Shown: piece by piece, positions 4,629-20,199 of the stretch | Layout of the letters: every line of letters starts with the position of its first letter | How positions within the stretch are numbered: the stretch's first letter is position 1 | NCBI GenBank assembly: GCA_043821445.1 | Contig: JBDRCT010000012.1 | Location: 1-56,088 of the forward strand | Reading direction: 5' to 3' | DNA from: Candidatus Omnitrophota bacterium | GTDB lineage: Bacteria; Omnitrophota; Omnitrophia; Omnitrophales; Aquincolibacteriaceae | Length of the DNA stretch: 56,088 nt | Program-made: the position numbers and the translations under genes | The notes under the pieces: model-generated | Seen by the model: only the letters and a program-made list of their open reading frames with translations | The model's database searches: none | Told to the model about the DNA's origin: nothing

Positions 4629-4923
4629 AGGGTTGCTGGAGATGCGTCCTTAATATATAGCCCAGAACCTGTTTTTAATCAATATTTTCTCCAGAACGTG
4701 GCAATACTTTGTTGGCTTGATGTTAAACTGCGGAAGTCTCAGGATTGTCAATCGCTATCAATTTATAGCAAAGAATGCTAAAGAGAAACATGGTTTTTTG
4801 CCGAAAAAAGATGTTAAACATACTGTAATAAATCCTTTTCCAATGGGTTGAAATTTAAAGAATATGTGTTAGGCTTCCCCTAACTAGACGGTTTGAAAAT
4901 TCTGAAAGGAAAATGTCCATTTC

Positions 4924-7900
4924 ATGAATTGTCTCAAGCAGTTACGAAGATTTTTTTCGGGTATGATCGCTGTCACTTTCTTCGTGACCAACACGCTTGT
5001 TCCAGCTCCCATCGCCCACGCTGCCAACGTGGAGTCCCCGGCATTTATCTCCTCTTTCACGATTCCTGTGGAATTCGGCAAGGTTACGGACAGGATCAAA
5101 GGCTTTGAAAGCGGTTCCCTTCTCATCCACATCCAGGAAGCCCATGCCAATTACGATGCGCAAAAGAACATCAAAAATATTCTAGAGCATCTTTCTAAGA
5201 ATTACGGTATCCGGTTGGTGCTTCTGGAAGGCGCAGGGAATAAGCTCGACGCGACATTATTTAAATTTTTTCCCAAGGAACTCGAGCTCCAGGAGGCAGT
5301 AAACGAGAAACTCATGCAAGCAGGTGAGCTTACGGGTGCTGAGGTTTTTTTAATGGATCAAACATTGTCCGGAGTAAGAAGTGCGGAGTACGGCGGCAAG
5401 AAAGAAACAAACTCCGTACGCCGTACGCAAGACGCCATTCTAGCTGAAGGCTATGGCGTTGAGAAAGCGGAAGCGTATGCTAAAAACCGGGAGGCTTTCA
5501 AGCGGGTTTTTGAAGGACGCGAGCTTGCGCAGGACTTTTTAGAGACCTTTTATCGTCAGTGGCAGAAATACGCCTCGCTTTTACCGAACAAACCCCTGAA
5601 GGAATTCTTGATTCGCGAGACAGCTTTCGAAGAAGGACGGTTACCGCTCGCGGATTGGATGATCTTCTTGAAAACGGCAGCGGCCCGCAATCTCAGGCTC
5701 GATCTGGATCATGTCTTGGAACAAAAGGATTGGCCGGTTCTTGTCCGGTATTTTCGGTTGAAGGCGATCGATCCCAAAATAGATACGACAAAAGTCAAAA
5801 TAGAGCAAGAAAAGTTTTTAGCTGAAATCAACGCCTTGGAGGGTGAAAGGCGGAGGGTGGAAGGCGCCCGCCTGCCGGACGGGCAGGTAAAAACCGAAGC
5901 CCCATCCCCCATCCTCCATCTTTCACCCATCGTTAAAGAGGTTACTGATATTTTTGAGCAGTCAAAAAAGAACGATCTCCCAGCTTACAAAACCCGCTTT
6001 GTTCTTGAAAAATTGCTCGATCGGCTTCCCAAAGATTTTTCGTTCGATGCTTATCCCAACCTTAGACTCTACCTTCAACAGATCATTCTCTTAAGCGAAA
6101 TACAGGGCGACGCCCTGCAGGATGAGATCAAATATCTGACCGGAAAACTGACAGCCCGTCTTATCAAGACCGAACAAGACCGTCAATTCGCGGAGATCCT
6201 GCATGATTTCCGTCTTGTCAAAAAACTTTTTGCACTCGAACTGAGCCGCAGTGAATATCAAACCATCCTTTCTGACAAGATCACGCTCGAGAAACTGCTC
6301 CAGGAGCTTCAGGCGCAAGACCCGGAAGCGAAGGTCCTCAACAAGAACCCTTCACCCAAGCTTTTGCGCCTCCAGTCTCTTTACGGGACGGCAATCCGCT
6401 TTTACGAAGGAGCGATCAAACGTGAAAATTGGATGATGAAGCAAGCGTTTGTGCGCATGCAGGAACGTAAGCAGACGAAGGCCGTGCTCATCACGGGAGG
6501 GTTCCATACGGAAGGCCTCAAAGAAAAAGTCCTTAGCACCGGCAGTTCCTATGTTGAGATCACGCCGCGTATCGGCGAAGTCGCTTCCCAAGACCGGGAA
6601 AATTATTTAAGGGCGTTGCTCGGAGGAAACTTCAGCACAACGCGCAACGCGCAACGCACAACGCAAGACAAAACCGTTGCGCATAGAACGTTGAGCATTG
6701 AGCGAAGTGAGATCGCAGCGTTGGTGCGAAGCGATATGCGTTTTTTGAAAGAGGTTTTTCCGAAAAATTGGCGCAGAGAATTAGCAGAGTTTGGAACAAA
6801 CCTTCGCGGCAAGTTGCGACAAGTCGTCAGCTCTGACAGGGCGCAAAAGACAGTGAGTGATTTTCTTGCAGCGGCTATGGGCGTCCCGGCTTCGCAGCCG
6901 GCCGCCGCCCGCTCGGAGATGCGGCAAGCCATGCAAGACGTCGCCAGCGCAAAACCGGACCTTCCGGGACTGACGCTGGGGCTTTCGTTGGATATCGGGT
7001 CCGAGAGGCGAGGGGCCGGGCTCGTCGAATTCGGCGCATTTAAAAAAGCGGCAAGATTGCTGGCACCTCTTAAGGAGAGTTTCGGGATGGGCCGCGTCTA
7101 TCCCTATAACAGTCTTTTTGAAATGAGCGATATCTCACGAGGTGTCCACCAAGTCCCCGACAGGGGAGAACATTTTATAACCTCCCCGGACGGCAAAACG
7201 ACCGTGAGGGTCGTGAATTATGAAACCAAGCGCGAGGAGGTTAGCGGAGTGACCCTCCGGGACGACAAAGGGAACTCTTTCTCCATTTTTAGTATGTTGA
7301 AACTTAATCCCCATTTATCCGATTCGAATGCCGGAAACGGGACCGCCGAAAAAACGCAAAGAGACGTTATAGCCTTCAACAAAAAGGCCCACAAGCTCGG
7401 GATTAAGACCGTGGCCGATTTCATTCCCTGGCTTGCGCCTGATGCCATCGATGAAAATAACCTCGACTGGGTTTTCCACGAAAAGCTAATCCCTGAAGAA
7501 AACCAGCATTTTCGCAACCTTTCCCATGGCGACAAACAAGCTTATATCAACAGTCTTATAAGGGAAAAAGGGGGAGCCTTTTTTGTCCGGAGAATAGGTC
7601 GGGGGGACAATGAAGAAGTCGTGCTGATCCGGCATCTTCCCGGCATGGGCATCTATAACGTCGATCAAGCCCTGCTGAATGTCTACTCGCCGAAGGTCCA
7701 GGATTATTTCAAACGATCGCTCAGGTTCCTCATCGATCTCGGGTTCGATACGATCAGGGTCGATACGGGATCTTTGCTGTTGAAGGAGAATTTGTCTGGA
7801 TTTCTTGCCGGGGCCGGTTTAAGTCCCGAAACCTCAACCCAAGGGGACCCGCTGCGGGAGATCATGCGGGACGCCTCGGGATACGCAAAACAAGAAGGCC

Positions 7901-10900
7901 GTTCTTTCGAACCCATATTCGAAACCTACGGCTGGGACGATCAAAAGGCCCTGATCGAGGCCGGCGATCAATCCGGCGTCGCCGTTTATGAAGACGGTCT
8001 TTTTTGGGCACTGCTCGAATTCGCGCGCAATCCCGCCGTTGGAACCTATAAGATCGCGGAAAAGATCAAAGAAGTCCTCCTTTTCGGTGTCCAGCATCCC
8101 GGGGAAAAGAAAAAGTTTCTTTTGTATCCAACTAATTTTGATCAAAATGCTCTCCAAGCGATGGGGAAGATCGGGAATGGATTTTCGGTCGCCGGCGTGC
8201 TCGCCCTTTCCCTTGTCACGGCGTATCTGGCGGGGGATTTTGGCGTTGTTAATGTTTTTCTAATCCTTCGGGACATGTTAGGTCAGAGCGGAGATGTCCA
8301 CCCGATCGTTGGCGGAGATATCCTGGACAATCACGCTTCCTTGGGAGGGGAACATGCCCATCCCTTTGTAAGAACTTCGGAGGAACTCGCCGCCAGGACC
8401 GATATCCGGAGACTGGAACAGGCGATCCGCGAAGCTTCTTCCGCGAAGTTTTTGAAGGCCCTTTTTTCAGCCACAAAAGAATCCCACCAGACCTACATCC
8501 AGTTCCTCGATAACGCGGATCGACAGCGTGTCATCAGCCTAGGGTGGAAAAATGAAAAAGAGGAATGGGTGGTTTTCGCGGTGAATCTCAGCCCCCGTCA
8601 AGGACCGCTCGACCTTCGATTCATCGAATTTCCTTCCCAAGCAACGGAAAATATCCCGCTGGAAGGTTGGGAAGCCAAAGACGCCCTGACGGGGGAGCTT
8701 TTTTCGATTGTGAAGGAAATAGCCGACGGGAAGGAATTTCCAAGGATCCTGGGCGTCTCTTTCAAGGATGAGGACTATCGCCTGATCGTTCTTGCTCCGA
8801 AAGAGGAAAAAAACCGCTCGGAGGCGAGAGGGGTTACGGCACGGTCCGAAACGAGAACTCTTGACGAAATTGCCACGGCAGCGTTTCGGCATTATCGCAC
8901 CCATTTGACCGGTTATGTGGAAATAGGGGGGAGTGAGTTTTTGATAAATCCGCGGATCAGCAACAGTCTCGTGCTTCTTATCAAGCCTTCCATCGGTCCT
9001 ATTACCCAAAAGACGATCGCCGAGATCCTGCGGGCGGCTAAAACGCGCGGCTATTTCGCGAACGCCATTCGCGTGGTTACCTCGCATGACATCCGAGAAC
9101 AGAAGATCATGGAAAGGCATTACCCCCGACATACGGACGTCGCAACAAAGGGCTGGGCGATTCTTAGCAAGAGAGAACAAGATGTCCTTAGAGAGCATTT
9201 GGCCGGTTTATCTTTTTCCAAGGAATTACTAGAGGCAAGCCATCCCGTACTTTCTGCCTCGGAATTCATGGAAAAAACAGGACTTTCGGCGGAAGTGCTG
9301 GCGAAACTCTGGGCGGCTTCCAAAAACGTCCGGAAGCTCAGCCGCGGGGCAAGGGCATTTCGCGTAGGTCTCATCACACTTTCTCGAAATGCAAACATTC
9401 CGGCGCGTTACCGCGGGGCGACCCTGCCGGTCCTTAACGGATTTTTGCCGGCACTTACGGAGGATTTTACGAAGGCCAAATATCCCACGGTCGCGATCTG
9501 GTTTAAAAAAGACCCGGAGGCGACGGGTGCGGCCACATTGCAGCAAATGCAAGAAGAATTTGCCGGCGAAATCAATCCAGAAGAAGCGGCACAGAAGCAT
9601 CCCGACAGTTTACGCGGGCGTGCCTTCCGAAAAGACCATAGGCTCGGACTTTTAGGCGAGAAGATGACCCCGCGGAAGAACTTTATACACTTAACAGCGC
9701 CTGAAGATATAGCGACCTGGGCCAAAAAAAATGGATTCTACTCCGAAGGGGAATTCCACGCTTGGTTTAACGATCTTTCAAACTATAAACCAAGAAAATT
9801 TCCGGCCAAAGGGCTCAAGAAAATTGCAGACGGCGAAGCGAAGGGATTCGAATATTTTGGGGCCCGTGAAGCCCGGGACTATATGAACGGCGCAGCGTTT
9901 CATCTGAGCGGGTTCGAATTAACAGACAAGACCGAGCTCGCCTACGATTTCATAACAGGATTCCAAGTCCGTACCGCTCAATTGAAAAGAATTTCGGATA
10001 AAAGGAGAGAAAAGGCACTCTTTTATTACAGCAAGGCGGATTTCAAAGGTTTTGAGGGAATGAAGCCCTCAGAGTTTCTTAAGGCAAAAGGGGTCTCTTT
10101 GGAGCAAGTGAGGGGGAAAAACATCCATGTTATCGACAAGTATTCCGGGATGCCCTTTCACAGAACAATTCCTCACAAGGCCACGGACCTCGCGAAAGAG
10201 TTAAAGCCGTTCGAAGGATTAAATGTTACGACAGTTTCGGATCTCGATTTGCTCTGGGTGGAAAAAACTAGCAACGACTCCGAGGAACAGGATGAAGCCG
10301 TCGATAAGACAAGCCGTTCCGAGATGCGGGCAGCTTCGGAAAAAGCAGGGCTTGAGGCGTATACCGTGGTCAGCCGTCAACTGGAGGCCGGTCTTGACCG
10401 CAGTATTTTGGAAGCACTCAACCGGAAATTAACCCAACGTTTTCAAGGGATGGGAAGCATGATCCGGCGCTATGTCGGTCTGGTCGCTGAAACCACGTTG
10501 ACCGGAGGGCTAGGCGCGCTCATGCATGACCTTTTTCCGGCATGGGCTCAAAATCTGGGGTTACAAAACAAGCCCAAAAAGGACCTTCTCGCTATCAACG
10601 TGATTTATGATCGAATTAAAGGACAACAGTACGCCAAACATCTTCCGGACGAGGTGCGGCAAGGGAAGGCGACCTTAGGCGATTACTTGCGCAGTGTTTT
10701 AAAAATGGATAAAAGCTTACGGCTTTCCTTTAAATTGGAGATTGAAGATGACTTCCGTCACAAGGCCGCAGATGAAAAGGCGTGGGCGGAACAAAACGGA
10801 TCCCCCGATTACAAAGAGGCGACCCGTAAGGCGAAAAGTATTATCGGCAAAAAGATCTATGTGGACATTTATCCAACCGAAACGCACTTTAATCAGGCTC

Positions 10901-13900
10901 CTAACTATTATATTGATGCGTACTTTTATAACGAAAAGAAAGAAAAGATTCGCGTTTTTGACGAAATTTATCCGGATGCCCCGTACGGCCATCCCAACCT
11001 TTGGCGCGATGTCCATATGGCGGTTTACGGCTGGGCGACCCAGCACCTGGTCCGGGAGCTCCAAAAAAAAGGAGTGGTTAAAAATAAGATCCTATTCGTG
11101 GATAATGAAGTGTTCGTTAGTACGCCAACTCCGATGTTCCCCGATGCAGTTCACCACCACGTCAACCATACAGTTTTCCGGCCCGGACTTTATATGCCGG
11201 ATGAAGCGTCCTACGAGATGCTGGGATATCCCGAGACCCAACGTAAATTCATCACGCAAAACGGGAAAATCAACGTCGTGGATGCAGTGGGGATCTCTTC
11301 GCGTCTGATCACGGGCGTCGCGCTTTACGAACATACGGCGGTTTTGGCCGACGATATCATGGCCGCATATCCTCATAAATTGGTCGGGTACAACGAGAAT
11401 GGGGTCCGCAATACGAACGGTGTCCTGCTTGAACAGTGGCAATCTCCTATCCTGAGGAGCCTGATCGACCAATACAAACGGCAACTCGGTATACAGCCGG
11501 AAGTTCCCGACAAAGAATTCTTTGAGCTTTTAAGTTCTGCCCCCCACGCGGCCGCTTTGGAATCATTCAAACAAAAAGCAGAATTCACAAAAGCGGTCGG
11601 AATCATCGAAACTCTTCTTTGGCTCACAGAAGACCAAAATTTCCCGGGATGGCTTGATGCTGTTGCGGCGGCCTACAAGGAAAAGGCCGGCCTTGAAAGG
11701 GTCGACGAACAAAAACTTATTGAGGATTTCCGGCGTGCCGTTGAATTGGCGATGGAGGACCCCGAGGCATGGCAGGCATTGACCCAAAGAGAAGATCTTG
11801 TTTTCCTAAAAGAATTCCTATTCAAAGATCCGATCCTTGCCAATGTCCGCCGCCAGGTATCGTATAAGGGACCGGACAAATGGATTGAGATCCTTGAAAA
11901 GTTGAAAAGCGATCCTCAGGCCCTGGCGGAATTTAAGGCAAAAGCCCCGCGCGTGATTATCGGAGGCCGAGAATTCGGTGATGAGGCCCACTGGATGTTC
12001 TTAAGGATCCAGTCACTCATCGGGGAATTGGGGCTCCAGGACAGGATTGCTACCATCGATGACTACAATATTTATATTGCGCCAACCATTGCTCAAGGCG
12101 TTTCCGGGGCCGTGATGCTTTCCGATGAGAAATTAGAGGCCGCATCCACTTTCACGATGAAAGTCATGACCAATATGGGCGTCCTGATCGGTGTTTGGGG
12201 TGGCGCGGATCCCGAGCTTTTCACAATCGTTGACATGAAGGCCGGACGCGAAATAGACATTTTCAAAGAAAAGGTGACCCATGACATACTGGTTGCCAAA
12301 TTGGAAAGTAAAGAGTGGAAAATCACAAACGGATTCCTTGTTGCGTACAGTAATACCGAACAAAGCACACAGGTAGGCGGAGGGCGGCGACCTTCCGCAG
12401 CGTCCCTTTTGCAAGATCTTTACGATTTGAATGACAGCTATCAGGACCCATCGGGCCGCCGCGACCTGCAGTTCGCTGTTCTTCGATCCACGCCCAAAGT
12501 GGATATGGCTCGGGGGCAGGCCGCAGCGCTTAAAACTTTGTGGGAAAGGACGATTCGGATCCTGCAAGAAGAAGACGAGCTTTTTGACGGGCTCGAAGTC
12601 GCAGCAGAAGACACAGAAAAATTCTTTAAAAAATCCCTTGCCCAAAACAGACAGCCGGAGTTCATCTGGCATGGCACGGCTCAAGACGCTTGGGACATTG
12701 CCGGTATTTTAGGATTTATCCAAGGGTTCCGCTATCTCAAGATGAAAGGCAGGGAAAGTTATAACAGCATCGCCCATCATGCCACGCAGGGTGAAAAAGG
12801 GGACATTTTTTCTTACTTGGAAAATTTTTTCGAAGGGTTTAATGCGACGCTGACACCCGTGATCAACAAAATTCACGAACTTGCCAGGCAAGCGCAAGCG
12901 GCCCAAACGATGGAAGAAAAAGTCAAAGCGAATCTGGAAGCCTTAGAGATCGTCGAACGAATGGCCGTCGAAATCTCGTACCATCTCCTGGAACATTACA
13001 TCAGGACCCAGGATAAAAAGATCGAAGCCTATTTAGCAAATCCTGTGGTTCGAGAAAATATAGCCATTTATCTGGAACGGCATGCGGTTCCTTTCAGGTC
13101 GATCGCGAAAAAGATCCGGGGATATGCCGTGGATATCAATGGCCAAAAATACCTCGTGGCACTGAATCTCGGTGAATACGATTTTCCCAGCGAAAAAGGT
13201 GAGAAGGCATGGGGCTCTCTCTACGGCCGCGAGGCCGCAGAAGGTCTCGTGGGCAGCGACGATGATTTCCGGATTTATCAGGTCGTCGATGCGATCTCCG
13301 GGGAGTCCCACGGGAAATATTCTTTATGGAAAATGGCGGAGACGATTCCCGTCGGAGTTCCTTTCCCGGGCGTTCAGGTCATGAAGCTGGTGGATTCCGG
13401 CGAGAGGACCGAGAAGCAAGAGATCTCGCTGGGGAAAGATGTGGTGGATTATCTCGAGGCCCTGACGAACGGGCGTCTTGTCAGCGATGAAAAACCGATC
13501 ACGCAACTCCTTTTTCAAAAGGTTAAAGACAGTATCGACGATCCCGAAAAAATGACGCGTTTGTTAAGAGGACTAACCAACCTTTCGCGCGATGAGGCCG
13601 TCGCAAAATTTGGCGAAAAGGGGGTCCCGGCCGTCATGGCGTTTGTTACCATCCTCTCGCCCGGACGATTGGAAAAAATCAAAGATTGGAACAGCGAGGT
13701 CTATGAGGCGTTGAGCGGAATGATCCAACAACCAGACCTCGAAGGTCTTTTTAGGACGGGAAAAACATGGTTCCATCGCGTAGACCGCGACAGCGCGATC
13801 GTTATTTCAAGAAGTCTTTCAGGCAAAAAGGTGGTTGTGCCGATCCACTTCTCCGCAACGCCCTTTCGTTCCGATGATGGAAAAGCATGGTTCCGCGTTC

Positions 13901-16900
13901 TTGATGTTGATCGTCTGGGCCTTCCGCTTTCTGAAGATGCCAGATACCAGGTTTACAACGTTCTTTCGGATACGATCTATCCTTTAGAGCATTCCGGAAA
14001 GGAACTTTCCGACGAAAAATGGTCCATCGGTGTTCCCGTGGAAGTGCCGCAAGACCCCACCGTTCTTCGCGAGCCCCCCTATCGCTTTCAAGCCCTGGAA
14101 GTGATTCCCGCAGGTTCTGTAGCGTCCCAACGCTCGGAAATGCGGGCGGAAAACGCATGGCCGCAACATGAAGCCCAAAAGATCGCCGTGATCGGCACCG
14201 GGTTCGTCGGCGCCACGAAAGCGATCCTGCTTGTGACCGATTGGGGCCATGATGTGATCGCGGTAGACATCCAGCCGCAGATCGTCGAAAAACTATCCAG
14301 TGGAAAGTTGACCTTTCACGCGAATGACCTTCAAGAACTCCTGACCGAAGGGCTCAGGACCGGCAAACTCAAATTTACCACCGACTACACGCAAGCGATC
14401 GAGGGGCGGGAGATCATTTTCTTGGCAGTCCAAACACCGCAGAGTGAGACCGGGCACGCAAACATCAATTATCTCAAAGATTCCGTCCGGGAGATCGCCC
14501 GACTTGTCCATCCCGGGGAATCCAAGATCCTCATCGGCAAGAGTACGGCCCCGCCGCGGGACACGGTGGCGACATTGAAAGCGGTTGTTGCGGAAGAATT
14601 TCAACGGCGCGAAGCTGCCGGAGAGGACCTCCAAGGCGCTACGATCCATTTCGCATGGGAGCCGGAGTTCCTAAGGGAAGGCAAAGAAGTCGAAGATGAC
14701 CGTGGCGTTGCAGGGCGCGTTGTGATCGGCGCGGACGATCCGGAGGTTGCCCTCAAGATCAAACAACTTTATGCGCACGCAAATCCCGATCCGGGACACG
14801 CCCGCACGAACGTGCCGGTCGTTCTTACGGACCTGACGAGCGCTCCGCTTGTCAAATATGCCGCTAACGGTTACCGCGGGATGAAGATCTCCTACATCAA
14901 TTTTATCAGCTGGCTTACGGAAGCCTTGGGCCTTAACATCGATCAGGTCGCTCATGACATTGCGACGCGAGCAGATTCCGGAGAAGAGGATCGCCGGATC
15001 GGCCGGGCGTTTTTAAGCGCAGGTCTGGGATTCGGGGGATCCTGTTTCCCGAAGGATCTTGCGTCGGCAGTCCAGATCTCGCGGGGTCTTGGGGTGCTCC
15101 CGGGGCTTGTGCTCGACGCGCTCGCGGTGAACGAACTTCAGTGGAAACGTTTTGTCGAAAAACTGGTCATCCATGAGCTCCAGAACGTTCAAGGCAAAAC
15201 GATCGTGGTTCTGGGCGCTTCTTTTAAACCCGGGACCGATGATATCCGAGAATCGCGCGCCGTGAAGGTGATCTCGAAGCTGCTGGGGCGCGGGGCCAAG
15301 ATCCGCGTCTATGATCCCGTCGCGGTCGAGCGCCTCCGGGACCCGAGGATCGGGCCTTTTAAGGACGATACGGCCATTGAATATTATTCGGACCCGTCAC
15401 AGCTCAACGCGATGCTGGAAAATTCGGATGCGGTGATCCTTGCGACAGAATGGCCGGATTTTGACAGGATCAATTTCGAGAATCTCCGTCACTGGTTCGT
15501 GGATCATAAAAAGGCTCTCCCCCCGATCTTTGATGGACGGAATTTCTTTAAGGAAAGTAAAGTGAATGATCCCGAACTGATCCGGCAGCAGCAGCGCTAC
15601 GCGCTCGGGCTAGATGAGAAGAGCCTGAAATTCCCTTATTTTAATATCGGACACGGCGAAATGCACAGCAAACCGCTTGTGCCTCACAATGAATTCGTGG
15701 AACGCGTCCGGGAATCTTTTCTGGCTTTGCGTATTTCTTATATCAATATGATCGCGGAAATCGCGGAGCGGGTCGGGGCGAACATCCGCGATGTCAAACG
15801 AGGTTTAGGCTTGGATTTCGTGGTGGGGGAGGAATATCTCGCGCCCGGGATCGGTTGGGGGGGGAACAAATTAAGCACCGCACTTGAAGATCTGGAAGGT
15901 TATGTAGAGCAATACTTGTCCGAGCAGCTTCTTCAAGAGTTCCAGAAGACTCGTCAAGCCATCCAGCAAAAATTCGAATTTCCTCGAGATACCGCTCAGA
16001 GCGAAGCGTTACCCGTTCCTTTTATTACCACGGTCAGGAAAATCAACGACCAGCAGATTGCCCTTTATCTTGAAAAAGCCAAAAAAGCCGCCGGGGGCGA
16101 TCTCCGGGGTAAGATCGTCGCGGTCCTGGGTCTGGCGTACAAGCCGGGAGAATTCGCGACTTACCAGTCACGGGCCTTGAACCTTATTGAGGCCCTTCTG
16201 CAGGAAGGAGCGATCGTTCGCGCGACGGACGTGGACCGACAAGCTGTAACAAACGCCCGGCGCGACTTGGATGAAATGCATGTTCCGCGCTCCGAAAATC
16301 TGACGCTTGTCCTGGAGAGCAGAACGGCGCAGGAAAACGCCCGCGAGACCGTACGGGGTAGCGAGATCCAGATCTTGGTGACGGCGTCTTCCGCTTTCGC
16401 GAATGTCGTCCCTATTTTCTTTGATGAGGAGAAGCGACCGGTCGCGAAAGCATCCAAGATGGTGGACGGCAGGCATTTTTATGATCCGGCAGACCTGAAA
16501 AAACAAGGCATCGAATATTTTGCCGTCGGAGTTCCCTCACCCGCCAGCGGGAAAGAGACTGTTCTTGAAGACCGGGAACAAGCCAAAGTCCTGGTGGCTC
16601 TTAAAGAGTCCGTTTCATTTCCCGAGAAATCCATAAAGGTCCGTTCTCAGGAGGACGGTCGTATTCTTGCAAGTCTAAAAGTCCGGATTAACCCCGGCAT
16701 GCTCGGGAAGGTCAGGTTCTTTTCCCATTTTGGTTTTTATGCGGGGGATGAAACTCCATGGCAAGATCAAGAAGTGGATGCCGAAAGAGAGATGACTCTC
16801 CTGAATCAAGAGGGAGACTGGGAAAACTATGAGATCCATGCGGTGATCGATCCCAGGAAATCCATTCCCGGAAGAAGCGGTGAGCTCGGGGTCACGTTCT

Positions 16901-19900
16901 TCGCATCGCCGGCAGCTATTTCCAGACAAGAGGCGAGCTTTATCACACAAAGACTAAAGGCCGGGGACCAGGGTGTGCATGATGGAAAGATCGAAGTGAA
17001 ACCCGAAGCCGCCATGCGCTCAGAAATGCGCCGGGACGGCAGTGAAAAAGTAACAAGAAAAGGAATGGCGGCATTGCACGCTCTGGCCGTGCAGCATCAA
17101 GGAGGAAAGATCGATGATACCCAGTTAAATATCGCGCTTGATCTCGAGGTGTCCCAGACTAGCATTTCGAAGATGTTTCGCGAATTTAATGTTGAGACAA
17201 GAGGACTTCCCCCAAAAGAAAAAAATGCCGCCGTTATTCAAGCACAAAAATTACAAGTGGAATTGGCAGAACGTCTAGGGGTGTCGCTGAAGGTCGCCGG
17301 GGAGATCTTAAGGAAGCCGGGCGGGGAGGAAAAAGAACGAATCATGGCGTTTTACATCTGGATCAAAGGATTGAAGAAGGGCCAGGAAATCCCGCAAAGC
17401 ACGCGCGAGATCGCGTTGAAATATGGGGTGGCCCAGTCTACCGTTCAAAACAATTTAGAAAGGAAAGAAGTCAAGGCGGGCGGGCTCACACTCCGGCAAA
17501 GGCACGCGAATTTCAAAACCTGGGTCATGGCTCACAGCGGACAAAGAATCTCCGGTACGGTTTCGGCGATTGCCCAAGACCGCGGATTGTGGAACAGGCT
17601 CGTTGCTTCGACTCTCAGGCGTTATGGCATTGCGCTCGTCTCGGCTCCTGCCAGCGCTGAAAAGACTGATCTCGAAAAGGGAAAACTTGTTGCCGTCCGT
17701 TCCGAAATGCGAACAGAATTGCCGCAGGGCATCCGGTACCAGGACCAGGTCCGGGTCGTGGAATCGGCAAATTGGTTTTTTCAAGGCATTGTTCCTCAGG
17801 ATAGAAAGGTGAAGGATTCCATTGACCGCACGATAGAAAGACTCAGTGAAATCATTCGTGAAGCGGTGCGAGACCAAAAACCCGTTTTATTGAGCGGGGT
17901 CGCCGTTTCCAGCGACGACGACCAGCTGTTTGAGATGCTCGGATTCGCTCCAGCTACAACGCGCCAAGATGCAGAGCGCGAAACCTTGTTCGCGATCAGC
18001 GATGCTGTTCGAAATGATCCGGGGATCGAATTTTGGAGATCCGAAAGGAGACTGCATTTTTTTGCAGCGGGAGAAAGAAGAGAGCTGATTCTAAAGCAAG
18101 ACCGAGGGGAATATTCCAAACTTTTTAAGGATCTCATCGGTAATCGTCTTAAGGGCCAAGAGGATCGGTTAAGGGGCGCCAATAGTTTTGATGCGGCGGT
18201 CCGGCTGAACAAGATCGCCGTGGCCAGTTCCGTGAAGGTGGAATATGGGCTCCGTGACCTTGCGGCCTTGGCGAATTGGCTCTCTCTCGATCCGGAAGTT
18301 GTAAGGGGTGCCGTCATCACGCAGGCGGAGTACAAAAACCTTCCGGCCACAAAACCCGCCGAAAAAGCGATTACCGCACCGAAACCCGTAACACCGCCGT
18401 CTCCGGAAATGTTATTCCTTTTAGAAGTTTTGAGCCAGATACAGACGGTTTGGGCGGAGCGCGAAGCTCATTGGGCGGTCCAGCAAGTCCATGAAGAAAC
18501 CGCCGCGTTGGCCGCGTGGGACCAGCCATTGAAGTTCGGGAACAATCATATTCAGAAAGAGGAGCGGGATGCAGTCCGTCAATATAGTGAAACTGCCGCA
18601 GATATTTATTTCGCCAAGACCGGGGTTTTCCCTAAGCAAGGGCTGAAAAAACTCATAAAACAAGAAACGAAAGAAGTTAATGGACGAAGATTTCTCGATG
18701 AGACTCCTTATCGAAAGATCTTAGAACGCGAATCTGCCCTGAGGACCTTGATAAACAGCCCTATCGAGGCGGAGGGGAATGCTACCGGGCCGGTCCGCAA
18801 ACGGATCGAAAGGATCTTTAGTACCATGATCGAACTGCGGGAGCTCCTCGGAAAGAGAGTTTTTTCCATTTCCAAACTTTATGAAATGAAACCCACTCTG
18901 GGGATATTCCGCCAACCCCATTCGGAAGTGCAACATCTCTTTGCAAAGCACATCGCGCACCTTCTTTTTGTAAGAAAAACGGGTTCAAGGGCCCTTAATG
19001 ACCAGGGTCAAGGGTTCGCCGGTTTTGTGGACGAATTATTTAGAAGTAAAGACATTCCCCTTGAGAGAGAGGGACAGAACAGAGCAGTTCCGTCCTCGGT
19101 TGCCAGGGGAGCCCTTGCGGATCTTCGGGCTTCCATCGAACAGCGTAAGGATTTTTATGACGCTAAAACAACGATCCTTGCGGACACGATCGGCAGGATG
19201 TATGGCGATATTCTTCGGCAGATCGAAGAGATCTCCGGGATCGAAGAAGAGCAAGCCTTTATGTCCAAGTTCCGTCAAATGCTAAACGATCTCGGGATGG
19301 TGTTGGCCAATGATGATCTGAAGCGTTGGTTTACGGGAATCGGTGAACCCTCCGCGGGACAGGAGATAGCAAGCATCGCACAAATGGAAGTGATCGGGGC
19401 GGTCATGGAACCTTTTTTTGCCGATGTTTCAGAAAAAAGCGCTTCTTCAGCACCACGAAGCGAAATACGAACTGTTGCAGCGGTAGCTACTCTAATGCCA
19501 ACGGAAACGATCACGGATAGCCAACTCATTGAAAAGAACAGGCTTTTTGGCGGCGGAGGGTTACAAGGGTTTCGTGGCGTAACGGAAAAGATCACGGACG
19601 GTATCTGGTCGCTTGTAGTGCATACGGTTAACGCGGTCAATGCCGTTGCGGCTTTCTTCGGCATGGCGGACTCCAAGGGCGAAATGCTGGATGTTACGAC
19701 GAAACCCCGGAGCGCTTTCGAAAAAACTAGGACCGCTGCGGCTCGAAGCGTTCTTGGTCTCAAATCGCTTACGTCCTCCGACGGATTTGTTCTGGGCAAG
19801 GACTTGGCTTTCAAGGACGGCGCTCTGATCGTGATGCGTAAAGTTTTTGGAGAAACTCCTGCGGCGGTTCTTGCTTCGTATGAATCCCTGAGTTCCGCCG

Positions 19901-20199
19901 ATCGAAGACTTTTTGACGGGATTAATGCTCAACTTGTTCGGGCTCACCGACCGCCCATCTTGATGGCTCCTTCTCTGGAAGAAGCGCGAAAACTGCTCGT
20001 AGCGTCAACGCCTTCGTTAAATCTTAAAGCCCTCGTCAACGTCACAGAGTCTTCCGCCATAACGCTAAAGCAACAGCTGGGTGATAATGCGATCCTGGTG
20101 ACGTCGCAGCATTTCCGCGCGTTTCTAGCTTCGGCCGGTGTCGCAGCCCTTGTTGAGAAAATGCAAAATGAGTATCTCGCGACCGCGCGGTCGGCGTAA
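4924..20199 (+). CDS. Giant 5091-aa modular secreted protein (putative polyprotein with RSExR-delimited modules)
   Basis: Uninterrupted 15.3-kb ORF; signal peptide ending AHA-A; recognisable GH13, NDK-like, GT35, UDP-glucose dehydrogenase and HTH modules. Confidence 0.92.
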   Translation: MNCLKQLRRFFSGMIAVTFFVTNTLVPAPIAHAANVESPAFISSFTIPVEFGKVTDRIKGFESGSLLIHIQEAHANYDAQKNIKNILEHLSKNYGIRLVLLEGAGNKLDATLFKFFPKELELQEAVNEKLMQAGELTGAEVFLMDQTLSGVRSAEYGGKKETNSVRRTQDAILAEGYGVEKAEAYAKNREAFKRVFEGRELAQDFLETFYRQWQKYASLLPNKPLKEFLIRETAFEEGRLPLADWMIFLKTAAARNLRLDLDHVLEQKDWPVLVRYFRLKAIDPKIDTTKVKIEQEKFLAEINALEGERRRVEGARLPDGQVKTEAPSPILHLSPIVKEVTDIFEQSKKNDLPAYKTRFVLEKLLDRLPKDFSFDAYPNLRLYLQQIILLSEIQGDALQDEIKYLTGKLTARLIKTEQDRQFAEILHDFRLVKKLFALELSRSEYQTILSDKITLEKLLQELQAQDPEAKVLNKNPSPKLLRLQSLYGTAIRFYEGAIKRENWMMKQAFVRMQERKQTKAVLITGGFHTEGLKEKVLSTGSSYVEITPRIGEVASQDRENYLRALLGGNFSTTRNAQRTTQDKTVAHRTLSIERSEIAALVRSDMRFLKEVFPKNWRRELAEFGTNLRGKLRQVVSSDRAQKTVSDFLAAAMGVPASQPAAARSEMRQAMQDVASAKPDLPGLTLGLSLDIGSERRGAGLVEFGAFKKAARLLAPLKESFGMGRVYPYNSLFEMSDISRGVHQVPDRGEHFITSPDGKTTVRVVNYETKREEVSGVTLRDDKGNSFSIFSMLKLNPHLSDSNAGNGTAEKTQRDVIAFNKKAHKLGIKTVADFIPWLAPDAIDENNLDWVFHEKLIPEENQHFRNLSHGDKQAYINSLIREKGGAFFVRRIGRGDNEEVVLIRHLPGMGIYNVDQALLNVYSPKVQDYFKRSLRFLIDLGFDTIRVDTGSLLLKENLSGFLAGAGLSPETSTQGDPLREIMRDASGYAKQEGRSFEPIFETYGWDDQKALIEAGDQSGVAVYEDGLFWALLEFARNPAVGTYKIAEKIKEVLLFGVQHPGEKKKFLLYPTNFDQNALQAMGKIGNGFSVAGVLALSLVTAYLAGDFGVVNVFLILRDMLGQSGDVHPIVGGDILDNHASLGGEHAHPFVRTSEELAARTDIRRLEQAIREASSAKFLKALFSATKESHQTYIQFLDNADRQRVISLGWKNEKEEWVVFAVNLSPRQGPLDLRFIEFPSQATENIPLEGWEAKDALTGELFSIVKEIADGKEFPRILGVSFKDEDYRLIVLAPKEEKNRSEARGVTARSETRTLDEIATAAFRHYRTHLTGYVEIGGSEFLINPRISNSLVLLIKPSIGPITQKTIAEILRAAKTRGYFANAIRVVTSHDIREQKIMERHYPRHTDVATKGWAILSKREQDVLREHLAGLSFSKELLEASHPVLSASEFMEKTGLSAEVLAKLWAASKNVRKLSRGARAFRVGLITLSRNANIPARYRGATLPVLNGFLPALTEDFTKAKYPTVAIWFKKDPEATGAATLQQMQEEFAGEINPEEAAQKHPDSLRGRAFRKDHRLGLLGEKMTPRKNFIHLTAPEDIATWAKKNGFYSEGEFHAWFNDLSNYKPRKFPAKGLKKIADGEAKGFEYFGAREARDYMNGAAFHLSGFELTDKTELAYDFITGFQVRTAQLKRISDKRREKALFYYSKADFKGFEGMKPSEFLKAKGVSLEQVRGKNIHVIDKYSGMPFHRTIPHKATDLAKELKPFEGLNVTTVSDLDLLWVEKTSNDSEEQDEAVDKTSRSEMRAASEKAGLEAYTVVSRQLEAGLDRSILEALNRKLTQRFQGMGSMIRRYVGLVAETTLTGGLGALMHDLFPAWAQNLGLQNKPKKDLLAINVIYDRIKGQQYAKHLPDEVRQGKATLGDYLRSVLKMDKSLRLSFKLEIEDDFRHKAADEKAWAEQNGSPDYKEATRKAKSIIGKKIYVDIYPTETHFNQAPNYYIDAYFYNEKKEKIRVFDEIYPDAPYGHPNLWRDVHMAVYGWATQHLVRELQKKGVVKNKILFVDNEVFVSTPTPMFPDAVHHHVNHTVFRPGLYMPDEASYEMLGYPETQRKFITQNGKINVVDAVGISSRLITGVALYEHTAVLADDIMAAYPHKLVGYNENGVRNTNGVLLEQWQSPILRSLIDQYKRQLGIQPEVPDKEFFELLSSAPHAAALESFKQKAEFTKAVGIIETLLWLTEDQNFPGWLDAVAAAYKEKAGLERVDEQKLIEDFRRAVELAMEDPEAWQALTQREDLVFLKEFLFKDPILANVRRQVSYKGPDKWIEILEKLKSDPQALAEFKAKAPRVIIGGREFGDEAHWMFLRIQSLIGELGLQDRIATIDDYNIYIAPTIAQGVSGAVMLSDEKLEAASTFTMKVMTNMGVLIGVWGGADPELFTIVDMKAGREIDIFKEKVTHDILVAKLESKEWKITNGFLVAYSNTEQSTQVGGGRRPSAASLLQDLYDLNDSYQDPSGRRDLQFAVLRSTPKVDMARGQAAALKTLWERTIRILQEEDELFDGLEVAAEDTEKFFKKSLAQNRQPEFIWHGTAQDAWDIAGILGFIQGFRYLKMKGRESYNSIAHHATQGEKGDIFSYLENFFEGFNATLTPVINKIHELARQAQAAQTMEEKVKANLEALEIVERMAVEISYHLLEHYIRTQDKKIEAYLANPVVRENIAIYLERHAVPFRSIAKKIRGYAVDINGQKYLVALNLGEYDFPSEKGEKAWGSLYGREAAEGLVGSDDDFRIYQVVDAISGESHGKYSLWKMAETIPVGVPFPGVQVMKLVDSGERTEKQEISLGKDVVDYLEALTNGRLVSDEKPITQLLFQKVKDSIDDPEKMTRLLRGLTNLSRDEAVAKFGEKGVPAVMAFVTILSPGRLEKIKDWNSEVYEALSGMIQQPDLEGLFRTGKTWFHRVDRDSAIVISRSLSGKKVVVPIHFSATPFRSDDGKAWFRVLDVDRLGLPLSEDARYQVYNVLSDTIYPLEHSGKELSDEKWSIGVPVEVPQDPTVLREPPYRFQALEVIPAGSVASQRSEMRAENAWPQHEAQKIAVIGTGFVGATKAILLVTDWGHDVIAVDIQPQIVEKLSSGKLTFHANDLQELLTEGLRTGKLKFTTDYTQAIEGREIIFLAVQTPQSETGHANINYLKDSVREIARLVHPGESKILIGKSTAPPRDTVATLKAVVAEEFQRREAAGEDLQGATIHFAWEPEFLREGKEVEDDRGVAGRVVIGADDPEVALKIKQLYAHANPDPGHARTNVPVVLTDLTSAPLVKYAANGYRGMKISYINFISWLTEALGLNIDQVAHDIATRADSGEEDRRIGRAFLSAGLGFGGSCFPKDLASAVQISRGLGVLPGLVLDALAVNELQWKRFVEKLVIHELQNVQGKTIVVLGASFKPGTDDIRESRAVKVISKLLGRGAKIRVYDPVAVERLRDPRIGPFKDDTAIEYYSDPSQLNAMLENSDAVILATEWPDFDRINFENLRHWFVDHKKALPPIFDGRNFFKESKVNDPELIRQQQRYALGLDEKSLKFPYFNIGHGEMHSKPLVPHNEFVERVRESFLALRISYINMIAEIAERVGANIRDVKRGLGLDFVVGEEYLAPGIGWGGNKLSTALEDLEGYVEQYLSEQLLQEFQKTRQAIQQKFEFPRDTAQSEALPVPFITTVRKINDQQIALYLEKAKKAAGGDLRGKIVAVLGLAYKPGEFATYQSRALNLIEALLQEGAIVRATDVDRQAVTNARRDLDEMHVPRSENLTLVLESRTAQENARETVRGSEIQILVTASSAFANVVPIFFDEEKRPVAKASKMVDGRHFYDPADLKKQGIEYFAVGVPSPASGKETVLEDREQAKVLVALKESVSFPEKSIKVRSQEDGRILASLKVRINPGMLGKVRFFSHFGFYAGDETPWQDQEVDAEREMTLLNQEGDWENYEIHAVIDPRKSIPGRSGELGVTFFASPAAISRQEASFITQRLKAGDQGVHDGKIEVKPEAAMRSEMRRDGSEKVTRKGMAALHALAVQHQGGKIDDTQLNIALDLEVSQTSISKMFREFNVETRGLPPKEKNAAVIQAQKLQVELAERLGVSLKVAGEILRKPGGEEKERIMAFYIWIKGLKKGQEIPQSTREIALKYGVAQSTVQNNLERKEVKAGGLTLRQRHANFKTWVMAHSGQRISGTVSAIAQDRGLWNRLVASTLRRYGIALVSAPASAEKTDLEKGKLVAVRSEMRTELPQGIRYQDQVRVVESANWFFQGIVPQDRKVKDSIDRTIERLSEIIREAVRDQKPVLLSGVAVSSDDDQLFEMLGFAPATTRQDAERETLFAISDAVRNDPGIEFWRSERRLHFFAAGERRELILKQDRGEYSKLFKDLIGNRLKGQEDRLRGANSFDAAVRLNKIAVASSVKVEYGLRDLAALANWLSLDPEVVRGAVITQAEYKNLPATKPAEKAITAPKPVTPPSPEMLFLLEVLSQIQTVWAEREAHWAVQQVHEETAALAAWDQPLKFGNNHIQKEERDAVRQYSETAADIYFAKTGVFPKQGLKKLIKQETKEVNGRRFLDETPYRKILERESALRTLINSPIEAEGNATGPVRKRIERIFSTMIELRELLGKRVFSISKLYEMKPTLGIFRQPHSEVQHLFAKHIAHLLFVRKTGSRALNDQGQGFAGFVDELFRSKDIPLEREGQNRAVPSSVARGALADLRASIEQRKDFYDAKTTILADTIGRMYGDILRQIEEISGIEEEQAFMSKFRQMLNDLGMVLANDDLKRWFTGIGEPSAGQEIASIAQMEVIGAVMEPFFADVSEKSASSAPRSEIRTVAAVATLMPTETITDSQLIEKNRLFGGGGLQGFRGVTEKITDGIWSLVVHTVNAVNAVAAFFGMADSKGEMLDVTTKPRSAFEKTRTAAARSVLGLKSLTSSDGFVLGKDLAFKDGALIVMRKVFGETPAAVLASYESLSSADRRLFDGINAQLVRAHRPPILMAPSLEEARKLLVASTPSLNLKALVNVTESSAITLKQQLGDNAILVTSQHFRAFLASAGVAALVEKMQNEYLATARSA
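6925..8814 (+). other. Giant-protein module 1: GH13 alpha-amylase-like domain with C-terminal beta domain
   Basis: KAHKLGIKTVADF (region I), LGFDTIRVD (region II Asp), IFETY (region III Glu), TNFDQ (region IV Asp), VVFAVNLSP...KDALTGE. Confidence 0.7.
8857..10314 (+). other. Giant-protein module 2: nucleoside-diphosphate-kinase-like domain plus unknown region
   Basis: LVLLIKP, IMERHY, INPEEA...PDSLRG and KNFIH match the order of NDK motifs (IKP, HY, NPxxA.PGTIRG, NxxH), with an insertion. Confidence 0.6.
10330..14130 (+). other. Giant-protein module 3: GT35 alpha-glucan phosphorylase-like domain plus two amylase-C-like beta domains
   Basis: TGGLGAL, VNHT, TNGV, VRRQVSYKG, IIGGR, DYNIYIA and EAASTFTMK (cf. 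EASGTSxMK, PLP lysine). Confidence 0.8.
14146..17016 (+). other. Giant-protein module 4: UDP-glucose/GDP-mannose dehydrogenase with duplicated C-terminal half
   Basis: KIAVIGTGFVG, KST, PEFLREG, KYAAN...KISYIN, GFGGSCFPKD, FKPGTDDIRES and DGRN. Confidence 0.92.
17032..17697 (+). other. Giant-protein module 5: multiple helix-turn-helix-like repeats
   Basis: IALDLEVSQTSISKMF, ELAERLGVSLKVAGEIL, STREIALKYGVAQSTVQ and TVSAIAQDRGL. Confidence 0.55.

Follow-up and report, generated by a model that had tools for sequence, protein, structure and literature searches.

A cysteine-poor giant polyprotein of an Omnitrophota bacterium carrying diverged alpha-glucan and sugar-nucleotide enzymes that may act outside the producing cell

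Why would a bacterium place enzymes of a cytoplasmic type behind what looks like an export signal? The question is raised by a stretch of DNA of 56,088 nucleotides from a Candidatus Omnitrophota bacterium (contig JBDRCT010000012.1 of assembly GCA_043821445.1; the whole stretch is referred to here as the window), in which one open reading frame (ORF) on the forward strand, at 4924-20199, encodes a protein of 5,091 residues. Omnitrophota are widespread, uncultured, ultra-small bacteria that are suspected of living off other cells, and we know of no evidence so far on whether the enzyme domains of their giant proteins are active. An earlier note, made from the letters of the window, had described enzymes acting on glycogen and nucleotides at 6925-17697 and had proposed their delivery into a host or prey cell; all the features it named are present where it placed them, inside the larger frame of the giant ORF. 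Our own reading, to which we give about an even chance of being right, is that these enzymes are the cargo of a Sec-exported Omnitrophota polyprotein that is cut at a recurrent R-S-E-x-R peptide and that they are active outside the producer's cytoplasm. In broader terms, the locus suggests that a suspected parasite exports metabolic enzymes for action outside its own cytoplasm, and with four recognisable enzymes set between clear module boundaries it offers a concrete case on which that idea can be tested.

The stop-to-stop frame of the giant ORF opens at 4906 and its earliest possible start is the ATG at 4924. The peptide R-S-E-[MAVIT]-R occurs eight times in the protein, at residues 663, 1298, 1307, 1798, 3070, 4032, 4259 and 4845, whereas 2,000 shuffles of the same 5,091 residues gave 0.05 occurrences on average and never more than 2, and the cargo span 6925-17697 is bounded by the first and the seventh of these copies. 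Among the 123 copies of the motif in the giant ORFs of this genome there is synonymous codon variation at each position, so that the constraint appears to lie on the peptide and not on an RNA signal. The possibility that R-S-E-M-R marks an internal ribosome-binding site with its start codon was ruled out on the basis of this variation and of the residue x, which is often alanine or threonine. The parts of the giant ORF are as follows.

4924-20199, forward strand: the giant ORF, within which the whole finding lies; two cysteines, and no transmembrane-like segment except in enzyme cores.
4924-5022, forward strand: Sec-type signal-peptide-like N-terminus, residues 1-33, with A-H-A before the predicted cut.
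5023-6909, forward strand: conserved N-terminal carrier domain with the motifs IHIQEAHA and TGGFHT, found in 18 of 28 related loci.
6910-6924, forward strand: first junction, R-S-E-M-R.
6925-8814, forward strand: GH13-fold module, predicted to act on alpha-glucans; invariant R945, D947, E1000 and D1073; regions I and IV lack their usual histidine.
8857-9786, forward strand: module of nucleoside diphosphate kinase (NDK) fold with an insertion of ~100 residues; K1354, H1399-Y1400, N1505, T1522, R1564 and the active-site His1589 conserved.
9787-10314, forward strand: sub-module of 176 residues to which no function was assigned; an RSExR-bounded module of its own in one relative.
10330-14130, forward strand: divergent GT35 alpha-glucan phosphorylase module with the pyridoxal phosphate (PLP) lysine K2413, E2405 and T2409, and a C-terminal extension of ~550 residues.
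14146-15630, forward strand: complete UDP-glucose 6-dehydrogenase (UGDH); GxGxxG at residue 3091, K..N at 3310, catalytic Cys3374.
15631-16593, forward strand: partial second UGDH copy, without the NAD-binding domain and with the catalytic cysteine replaced.
16594-17016, forward strand: tail of the UGDH module, 141 residues, conserved in three relatives; no fold assigned.
17032-17697, forward strand: module with four weak helix-turn-helix (HTH)-like segments.
17713-19455, forward strand: module of 581 residues outside the cargo span; no function assigned.
19471-20196, forward strand: conserved C-terminal end domain of the carrier family, which ends the giant ORF in 14 of the 28 loci and is also present in several relatives.
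8815-8829, 8842-8856, 10315-10329, 14131-14145, 17017-17031, 17698-17712 and 19456-19470, forward strand: the other R-S-E-x-R junctions.

The features of the carrier family are thus found together in this ORF: a signal peptide, conserved N- and C-terminal domains, a cysteine-poor chain and modules bounded by R-S-E-x-R.

To identify the enzymes, homologues were collected from related genomes for module profiles and each module was then tested separately. Profiles and structural models were needed because single-sequence searches of the PDB and Pfam with the GH13, GT35 and NDK-like modules gave no significant match; in the single-sequence scans of Pfam and NCBIfam only the UGDH was confirmed. 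For the GH13 module, the best that PF00128 reached was 13.5 bits (E 0.044) against a cut-off of 22. An AlphaFold2 model built from a 5-sequence alignment (pLDDT 74, pTM 0.81) was compared with the PDB by Foldseek, and the best 50 rows were all GH13 enzymes, with E values from 2.5e-15 to 2.6e-13 and with trehalose synthase, GlgE, neopullulanase and amylases among them. These matches indicate the (beta/alpha)8 barrel with C-terminal beta-sandwich that is typical of the family. The residues R945, D947, E1000 and D1073 are invariant in all five homologues, in agreement with the earlier description of retained Asp/Glu/Asp catalytic positions; region II (R-x-D) of the module aligns to GH13 chains, and regions III and IV were placed by the motifs known for the family.

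The GT35 module, of 1,267 residues, is very divergent. An 11-sequence profile of it matched plant and yeast alpha-glucan phosphorylases in the PDB (E 2.3e-7 and 1.4e-6), nearly all of the 49 matches listed were phosphorylases, and the match was centred on the PLP site. Supporting the assignment was that the segment E-A-S-G-T-x-x-M-K aligned to the phosphorylases and that K2413, the PLP lysine, is invariant together with E2405 and T2409. Single-sequence scans gave 13.4 bits for PF00343 (cut-off 27, E 0.024) and E 0.0024 for TIGR02094. Amylase C-terminal domains were considered as the identity of the last 540 residues of the module and set aside, their Atlas score of 0.77 being too low to use.

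The NDK-like module was modelled from a 12-sequence alignment with a pLDDT of 86, and comparison by VIA superposed the model on NDKs with Z 11.7 and a root-mean-square deviation of 2.4 A over 125-138 of ~130-150 residues, the best 50 entries all being NDKs or NDK-domain proteins. Foldseek gave only E 1.3e-3 and weaker for the same model, and PF00334 had no match in the window's module in a single-sequence Pfam scan at E values up to 5. The proposed active histidine is His1589 (codon at 9688), and the histidine of the N-x-x-H segment is kept in all ten of the aligned sequences that reach it, the other two of the twelve being cut short. Alignment positions K43, Y89, T211 and R253 show little or no variation, and the Lys, Tyr, Thr and Arg presumably have the partner roles known for NDKs. 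With its 12-sequence profile, 1,108 representative clusters were collected at E<=1e-3 and 544 at E<=1e-10 from 1.84 billion representatives. Some giants in this family have up to seven copies in tandem, and many members are stand-alone proteins of ~335-345 residues in other phyla; eight stand-alone sequences that were inspected were without a signal peptide, and most had cysteine. PF00334 matched weakly in 8 of 10 stand-alone relatives (E 2.7e-7 to 0.014) and over its cut-off in one of the ten, and the sole recorded name in the family is 'hypothetical protein' of a Spirosomataceae metagenome-assembled genome. The module is better filed as a separate NDK-related family, large and so far uncharacterised, which the 1,108 representative clusters bring into view.

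The UGDH was the clearest of the assignments, with PF03721 (132 bits), PF00984 (125.6 bits) and PF03720 (117.6 bits) all over their cut-offs and TIGR03026 at 405.7 bits (E 1.9e-121). The GxGxxG, K..N and GGSCFPKD elements of the first copy align with the genome's own ugd, the last of them containing Cys3374 (codon at 15043), the catalytic cysteine that had been recognised earlier. The half-copy that follows consists of the central and UDP-binding domains only, and the pair of active copy and half-copy is kept in five relatives; the half-copy may take the place of one partner in the dimer that UGDH usually forms. The HTH repeats of the earlier description fared less well: four HTH-like segments can be made out, and the matches were all below their cut-offs (HTH_10, E 0.002; MntR, 3e-4; TyrR-HTH, 3.7e-4), with a best PDB match of E 0.63. 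An effect on transcription had been proposed from these repeats; the segments themselves remain, but the module is weak and had no homologue in 40 relatives or in 28 related loci.

Whether these enzymes are simply the cell's own metabolic set was addressed from the rest of the genome, which has canonical genes for GlgP (contig C31, 1,105 bits), NDK (C50, 142 bits) and UGDH (C7, 234 bits), together with at least 8 GH13 matches over the cut-off. The cargo enzymes are therefore extra copies, and the concern that they might be the only housekeeping copies of the genome falls away. When compared by hhalign, the GT35 module and the genome's own GlgP gave a probability of 87% and could be aligned over 61 columns only; the NDK-like module and the genome's own NDK gave 82% over only 69 alignable columns, and the GH13 module gave 56% against a single housekeeping sequence. 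The UGDH module shares 36% identity with the genome's own ugd, as against 43-80% among giant-borne copies. Judged by these alignments, the cargo enzymes are old, deeply diverged extra copies in which the catalytic residues have been kept. They are apparently active, and inactivity of the modules, a second reservation attached to the original proposal, finds no support at the level of the sequence.

The evidence for export begins at the N-terminus. As read from the sequence, its n-region carries K5, R8 and R9 and is followed by a hydrophobic core free of charges, with A-H-A ahead of the predicted cut, and this layout, which agrees with the Sec-like signal peptide reported earlier, is retained in the consensus of 14 homologous N-domains. 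Neither a lipobox in the N-terminus nor a transmembrane-like segment elsewhere in the giant ORF, outside the enzyme cores, was found. From this layout we infer export of the polyprotein through Sec; the third reservation, that the N-terminus might not work as an export signal, likewise finds no support in the sequence. A twin-arginine reading of L-R-R-F-F as a feature of the family was rejected, there being no such pair in the N-termini of the genome's ten sister giants.

A second line of evidence comes from cysteine. The giant protein has two cysteines in its 5,091 residues, one of them in the signal peptide and the other the catalytic cysteine of the UGDH. The genome's own housekeeping GlgP, NDK and UGDH and one GH13 have 0.72-2.6% cysteine. 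The median for genome ORFs of at least 300 residues is 1.13%, and a crude screen for signal peptides gave medians of 0.60% for signal-peptide-like ORFs (n=222) and 1.21% for the others (n=1,291), baselines that come from crude ORF sets with spurious frames included. The cysteine of GGSCFPKD is kept in the UGDH modules of 7 of 7 relatives, whose giants hold 3-8 cysteines in 3,055-6,234 residues. It is an established pattern that exported proteins avoid cysteine in bacteria without a disulfide-forming pathway, and neither DsbB nor VKOR turned up in this genome, which is 93.7% complete. The near-total loss of cysteine from the chain is independent support for export, and with it the export of active enzymes can be called well supported. 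The sole cysteine of the mature chain, being catalytic in 8 of 8 proteins (the window's included), also serves as a built-in marker of activity.

The pattern extends beyond this one gene. Eleven ORFs of the genome have at least three R-S-E-x-R motifs and together comprise 53,826 residues, or 6.9% of the genome; all eleven are cysteine-poor (0.04-0.22%) and 10 of the 11 have signal-peptide-like starts. The 28 related loci come from species-representative genomes, which were searched by a pattern scan based on the GT35 alignment. Their titles name 19 as Candidatus Omnitrophota or Omnitrophica, 8 as 'uncultured bacterium' and 1 as Eisenbacteria, and the 19 support the assignment of the window to Omnitrophota. 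In all 28 the GT35-like module lies in a giant cysteine-poor ORF (887-7,348 residues inside the fetched 10-kb flanks). UGDH is in the same ORF in 7 of the 28, always adjoining GT35, and the corresponding counts are 3 for GH13-like, 2 for NDK-like, 14 for the C-terminal end domain and 18 for the N-domain; all of these are minimum values, as many ORFs extend past the ends of their loci. In one relative (L046) the order is N-domain, GH13, GT35, UGDH, UGDH half-copy, tail and end domain. The GT35 module recurs only within giants, often adjoining other enzymes of alpha-glucan or sugar-nucleotide metabolism, and the loci thus expose a GT35 lineage found only inside giants and a theme of alpha-glucans and sugar-nucleotides that returns across species. 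The motif is not universal among the carriers of this module, since a 7,348-residue cysteine-poor ORF titled Candidatus Eisenbacteria (L060) and a second locus (L057) are without it.

Seven relatives were scanned with Pfam upstream of GT35. A GT5 starch/glycogen synthase was found there in 2 of the 7, and dikinase modules made up of PPDK_N and PEP-utiliser domains in 3 of the 7; a receiver domain, a subtilase, and CofD with NUDIX were each present in one. The GT5 and dikinase modules lie directly upstream of GT35 (L056 8129-9379; L052 7673-8488; L055, L052 and L066 upstream of 10001), and the dikinases may be glucan-water dikinases. Because of these synthase and dikinase modules the theme is alpha-glucan and sugar-nucleotide metabolism in both directions, beyond breakdown. 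The earlier proposal that the cargo mobilises storage glucan is accordingly too narrow.

The role of the carrier parts is less clear-cut. The N-domain has H69, Q71, H74 and G525-G526-F527-H528 invariant or nearly so in its alignment. A 14-sequence profile of it found no relative in the PDB (best E 0.1), and its matches in the Atlas were Omnitrophota hypothetical proteins only. PF04187, of the ChaN/Tiki superfamily, gave weak matches in 7 of 14 N-domain homologues (best E 0.0084), which is a weak lead only. Some members of the Tiki superfamily are proteases, and that the N-domain itself cuts R-S-E-x-R is speculation on our part. Next to the giant ORF is a further feature of the window.

2361-4628, reverse strand: stand-alone paralogue of the N-terminal carrier domain, divergently transcribed, with a signal-peptide-like start of its own.

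By BLASTP this ORF matches the N-domain in two segments (E 1e-10 and 5e-10) and has the motifs IQ(E/D)xHA and TGGFHT in common with it; there are 2 cysteines in its 756 residues. The divergent arrangement is also present in a same-genus relative (L032 2452-4827), and we regard the paralogue as a candidate partner or processing factor.

Taken together, the polyprotein would be read as a signal peptide, a carrier domain of ~630 residues, a chain of enzymes bounded by R-S-E-x-R, the 581-residue module and the end domain. The chain would cross the inner membrane unfolded and, once exported, be cut at R-S-E-x-R, and the freed enzymes would run reactions of alpha-glucans and sugar-nucleotides outside the producer's cytoplasm. 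These reactions depend on phosphate, NAD+ and nucleotides, and the likeliest setting that provides them would be an attached host or prey cell, either within its cytoplasm or among the contents leaking from it. We infer delivery into a host or prey cytoplasm from its fit with these cofactor needs and with the suspected lifestyle of the phylum. We speculate further, and hold it to be a tentative and on balance doubtful idea, that the protein is a 'metabolic take-over kit': a cysteine-free chain cut at R-S-E-x-R into enzymes inside a host, or at its breached surface, which turn the host's storage glucan and sugar-nucleotides into products for an ultra-small parasite.

Several observations weigh against action outside the producer. 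Known periplasmic biochemistry leaves little room for NAD+- and nucleoside triphosphate (NTP)-dependent enzymes outside the cell, and the loading of PLP would have to follow export. The glucan synthase and the ATP-dependent dikinases of relatives look like balanced metabolism and less like attack. None of the GH13, GT35 and NDK-like modules reaches the curated threshold of Pfam, and in the GH13 module DFIPWL and NFD replace the motifs of region I (DxxxNH) and region IV (NHD), with loss of the conserved histidines. The genome does have one DSBA-family match (42 bits), and the cysteine baselines are as crude as described above. No secretion or pilus genes were found among the 10 flanking ORFs scanned, and no RNA run was listed as containing the giant gene.

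Four other explanations were considered, the first two being the main rivals. In the first, the polyprotein works in the cytoplasm: either it is cut there, ahead of export or with no export at all, or its signal stays uncleaved and anchors it. The N-domain alone would be exported, and the enzymes would serve the cell's own glycogen as a co-expressed set. The cytoplasm would supply the NAD+, NTPs, PLP and phosphate that the enzymes require, and this explanation agrees with the synthase and dikinase modules that stand alongside degrading enzymes in relatives and with the heavy investment of the genome in alpha-glucan genes, including a GH13 cluster on contig C53; a cytoplasm-facing reading of giants that have only transmembrane segments is also weighed by Nielsen and Lui 2026 (bioRxiv 10.64898/2026.06.07.730766). 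However, it leaves unexplained the loss of cysteine in every module compared with 0.7-2.6% in the housekeeping paralogues, the functions in question are already covered by those paralogues, the positive n-region predicts that the chain, and not the N-terminus, crosses the membrane, and none of the eight junctions of the giant ORF is followed by an internal signal-like segment. We consider a cytoplasmic role unlikely.

Processing of glucan in the periplasm or at the surface strikes us as similarly improbable. Here the exported GH13 and GT35 would degrade the alpha-glucan of lysed neighbours with phosphate only, and UGDH, the NDK-like module and the HTH module would have non-canonical or binding roles. 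The signal peptide and the depletion of cysteine are as expected for it, a GH13 enzyme is free of cofactors, a GT35 enzyme with PLP bound needs only phosphate, and 'secreted multi-domain CAZymes on extracellular polysaccharide' is kept among the surviving hypotheses by Nielsen and Lui. What it does not accommodate is the UGDH, in which the sole kept cysteine is the catalytic one in 8 of 8 proteins and the NAD-binding and K..N elements are intact, pointing to real dehydrogenase chemistry with NAD+ and UDP-glucose, nor the conservation of the NDK-like histidine and its partner residues.

That the modules are pseudo-enzymes, retained in a giant surface protein for binding or as a scaffold, we think very unlikely: the GH13, GT35 and NDK-like modules have diverged so deeply that Pfam misses them, two conserved histidines are missing from GH13 and a clearly inactive UGDH half-copy lies in the same chain, but the Asp/Glu/Asp, the PLP lysine, the NDK histidine and the UGDH cysteine vary little or not at all among homologues of 25-60% identity. 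Fusion of separate genes by mis-assembly or read-through can hardly be credited, for although the assembly is of metagenome type in 57 contigs and the supporting contigs are of low depth, the frame is open over 15.3 kb, L046 has the matching order of N-domain, GH13, GT35, UGDH and end domain, and the contigs of three DNA runs from two studies, short and none of them spanning the whole giant ORF, match it with 0 differences where listed, crossing the junctions at 10315, 17017 and 17698. The action of a cleaved, exported cargo beyond the producer's cytoplasm is the reading that we favour.

Further features of the locus are recorded here. The flanking genes are of housekeeping type and include those for menaquinone synthesis, transketolase, gamma-glutamyltranspeptidase and others. 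Four heptamer units GCRCAAC lie in tandem at 6635-6662, in the giant ORF, where the N-domain is about to end; two or more copies of the heptamer were found at 47 sites of the genome, some of them inverted pairs 40-55 bases apart (for example 21875/21929). The contigs of the three DNA runs diverge on either side of the run at 6635-6662, and a 7-base repeat within a coding frame could allow a frame shift by slippage.

It is useful to compare the giant ORF with the systems that it most resembles. Giant proteins of Omnitrophota have been the subject of two surveys. West-Roberts et al. 2023 (bioRxiv 10.1101/2023.11.21.568195) state that their cleavage points are not known, and Nielsen and Lui 2026 catalogue 'multi-enzyme metabolic clusters' with their signal-peptide and transmembrane topologies, including a sugar-metabolism set of Pfam domains made up of starch synthase, GT1 and phosphoglucomutase. 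The protein described here shares with these giants its phylum, great length, signal peptide and many metabolic domains, and both accounts point out how puzzling metabolic domains on the outer face are. It differs in that both surveys treat proteins of at least 10,000 residues by Pfam, to which the GH13, GT35 and NDK-like modules are invisible. In the text searched, neither survey mentions a junction motif or an analysis of cysteine or glycogen, and that of Nielsen and Lui makes no mention of cleavage, a motif, cysteine or glycogen at all; the supplements of both may list related proteins. A literature search on the junction-motif strings returned unrelated matches only, and one for Omnitrophota with a secreted glycogen phosphorylase found none.

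The nucleoside diphosphate kinases secreted by pathogens are canonical enzymes of ~140-150 residues that act outside the producing cell. The NDK-like module resembles them as an NDK-fold enzyme proposed to act outside its producer, but it belongs to a separate, uncharacterised family of long NDKs with the ~100-residue insertion. In CdiA and two-partner secretion, a Sec signal and an N-terminal transport domain are followed by a short motif that precedes exchangeable cargo acting in the cytoplasm of a target cell. The Sec signal, the conserved N-terminal domain and the short peptide motif at the start of the cargo are shared; here, however, there are many enzyme modules as opposed to one terminal toxin, and the giant ORF had no Pfam match to the two-partner secretion (haemagglutination activity) domain or to FHA repeats.

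MARTX toxins are giant exported proteins with conserved ends and a shuffled mosaic of enzymes that act in the cytoplasm, cleaved between the modules; they use type 1 secretion and have glycine-rich repeats and an internal cysteine protease domain. The likeness is in the giant size, the conserved ends and the variable enzyme modules. RTX-type repeats, a cysteine protease domain and a type 1 secretion signal had no Pfam match in 8 segments at E values up to 5, and the cargo here is metabolic, whereas that of MARTX is cytotoxic.

The closest functional precedent is that of Chlamydia, which belongs to the same PVC group of phyla as Omnitrophota. Gehre et al. 2016 (eLife, PMC4829429) tested chimeras of C. 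trachomatis enzymes, and 5 of the 6, those of GlgA, GlgB, GlgX, GlgP and MalQ, were substrates of type 3 secretion; the enzymes act in the lumen of the inclusion, where glycogen is both synthesised and broken down with the use of host UDP-glucose. In Chlamydia, enzymes of glycogen metabolism of a cytoplasmic type are thus exported to a host-derived space, and here enzymes of that type would be exported as well. The chlamydial enzymes are separate proteins of housekeeping type with type 3 secretion signals and no signal peptide, whereas here extra, diverged copies are chained in one polyprotein led by a Sec signal, in a bacterium with no known host. If the enzymes do act outside the producer, the precedent of exported glycogen metabolism would be extended from Chlamydia to free-living relatives, and a bacterial polyprotein strategy for the delivery of metabolic enzymes would be added to it. 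Should the idea of a take-over kit also prove true, the giant protein would be a metabolic counterpart of MARTX and a polyprotein version of the secreted glycogen enzymes of Chlamydia.

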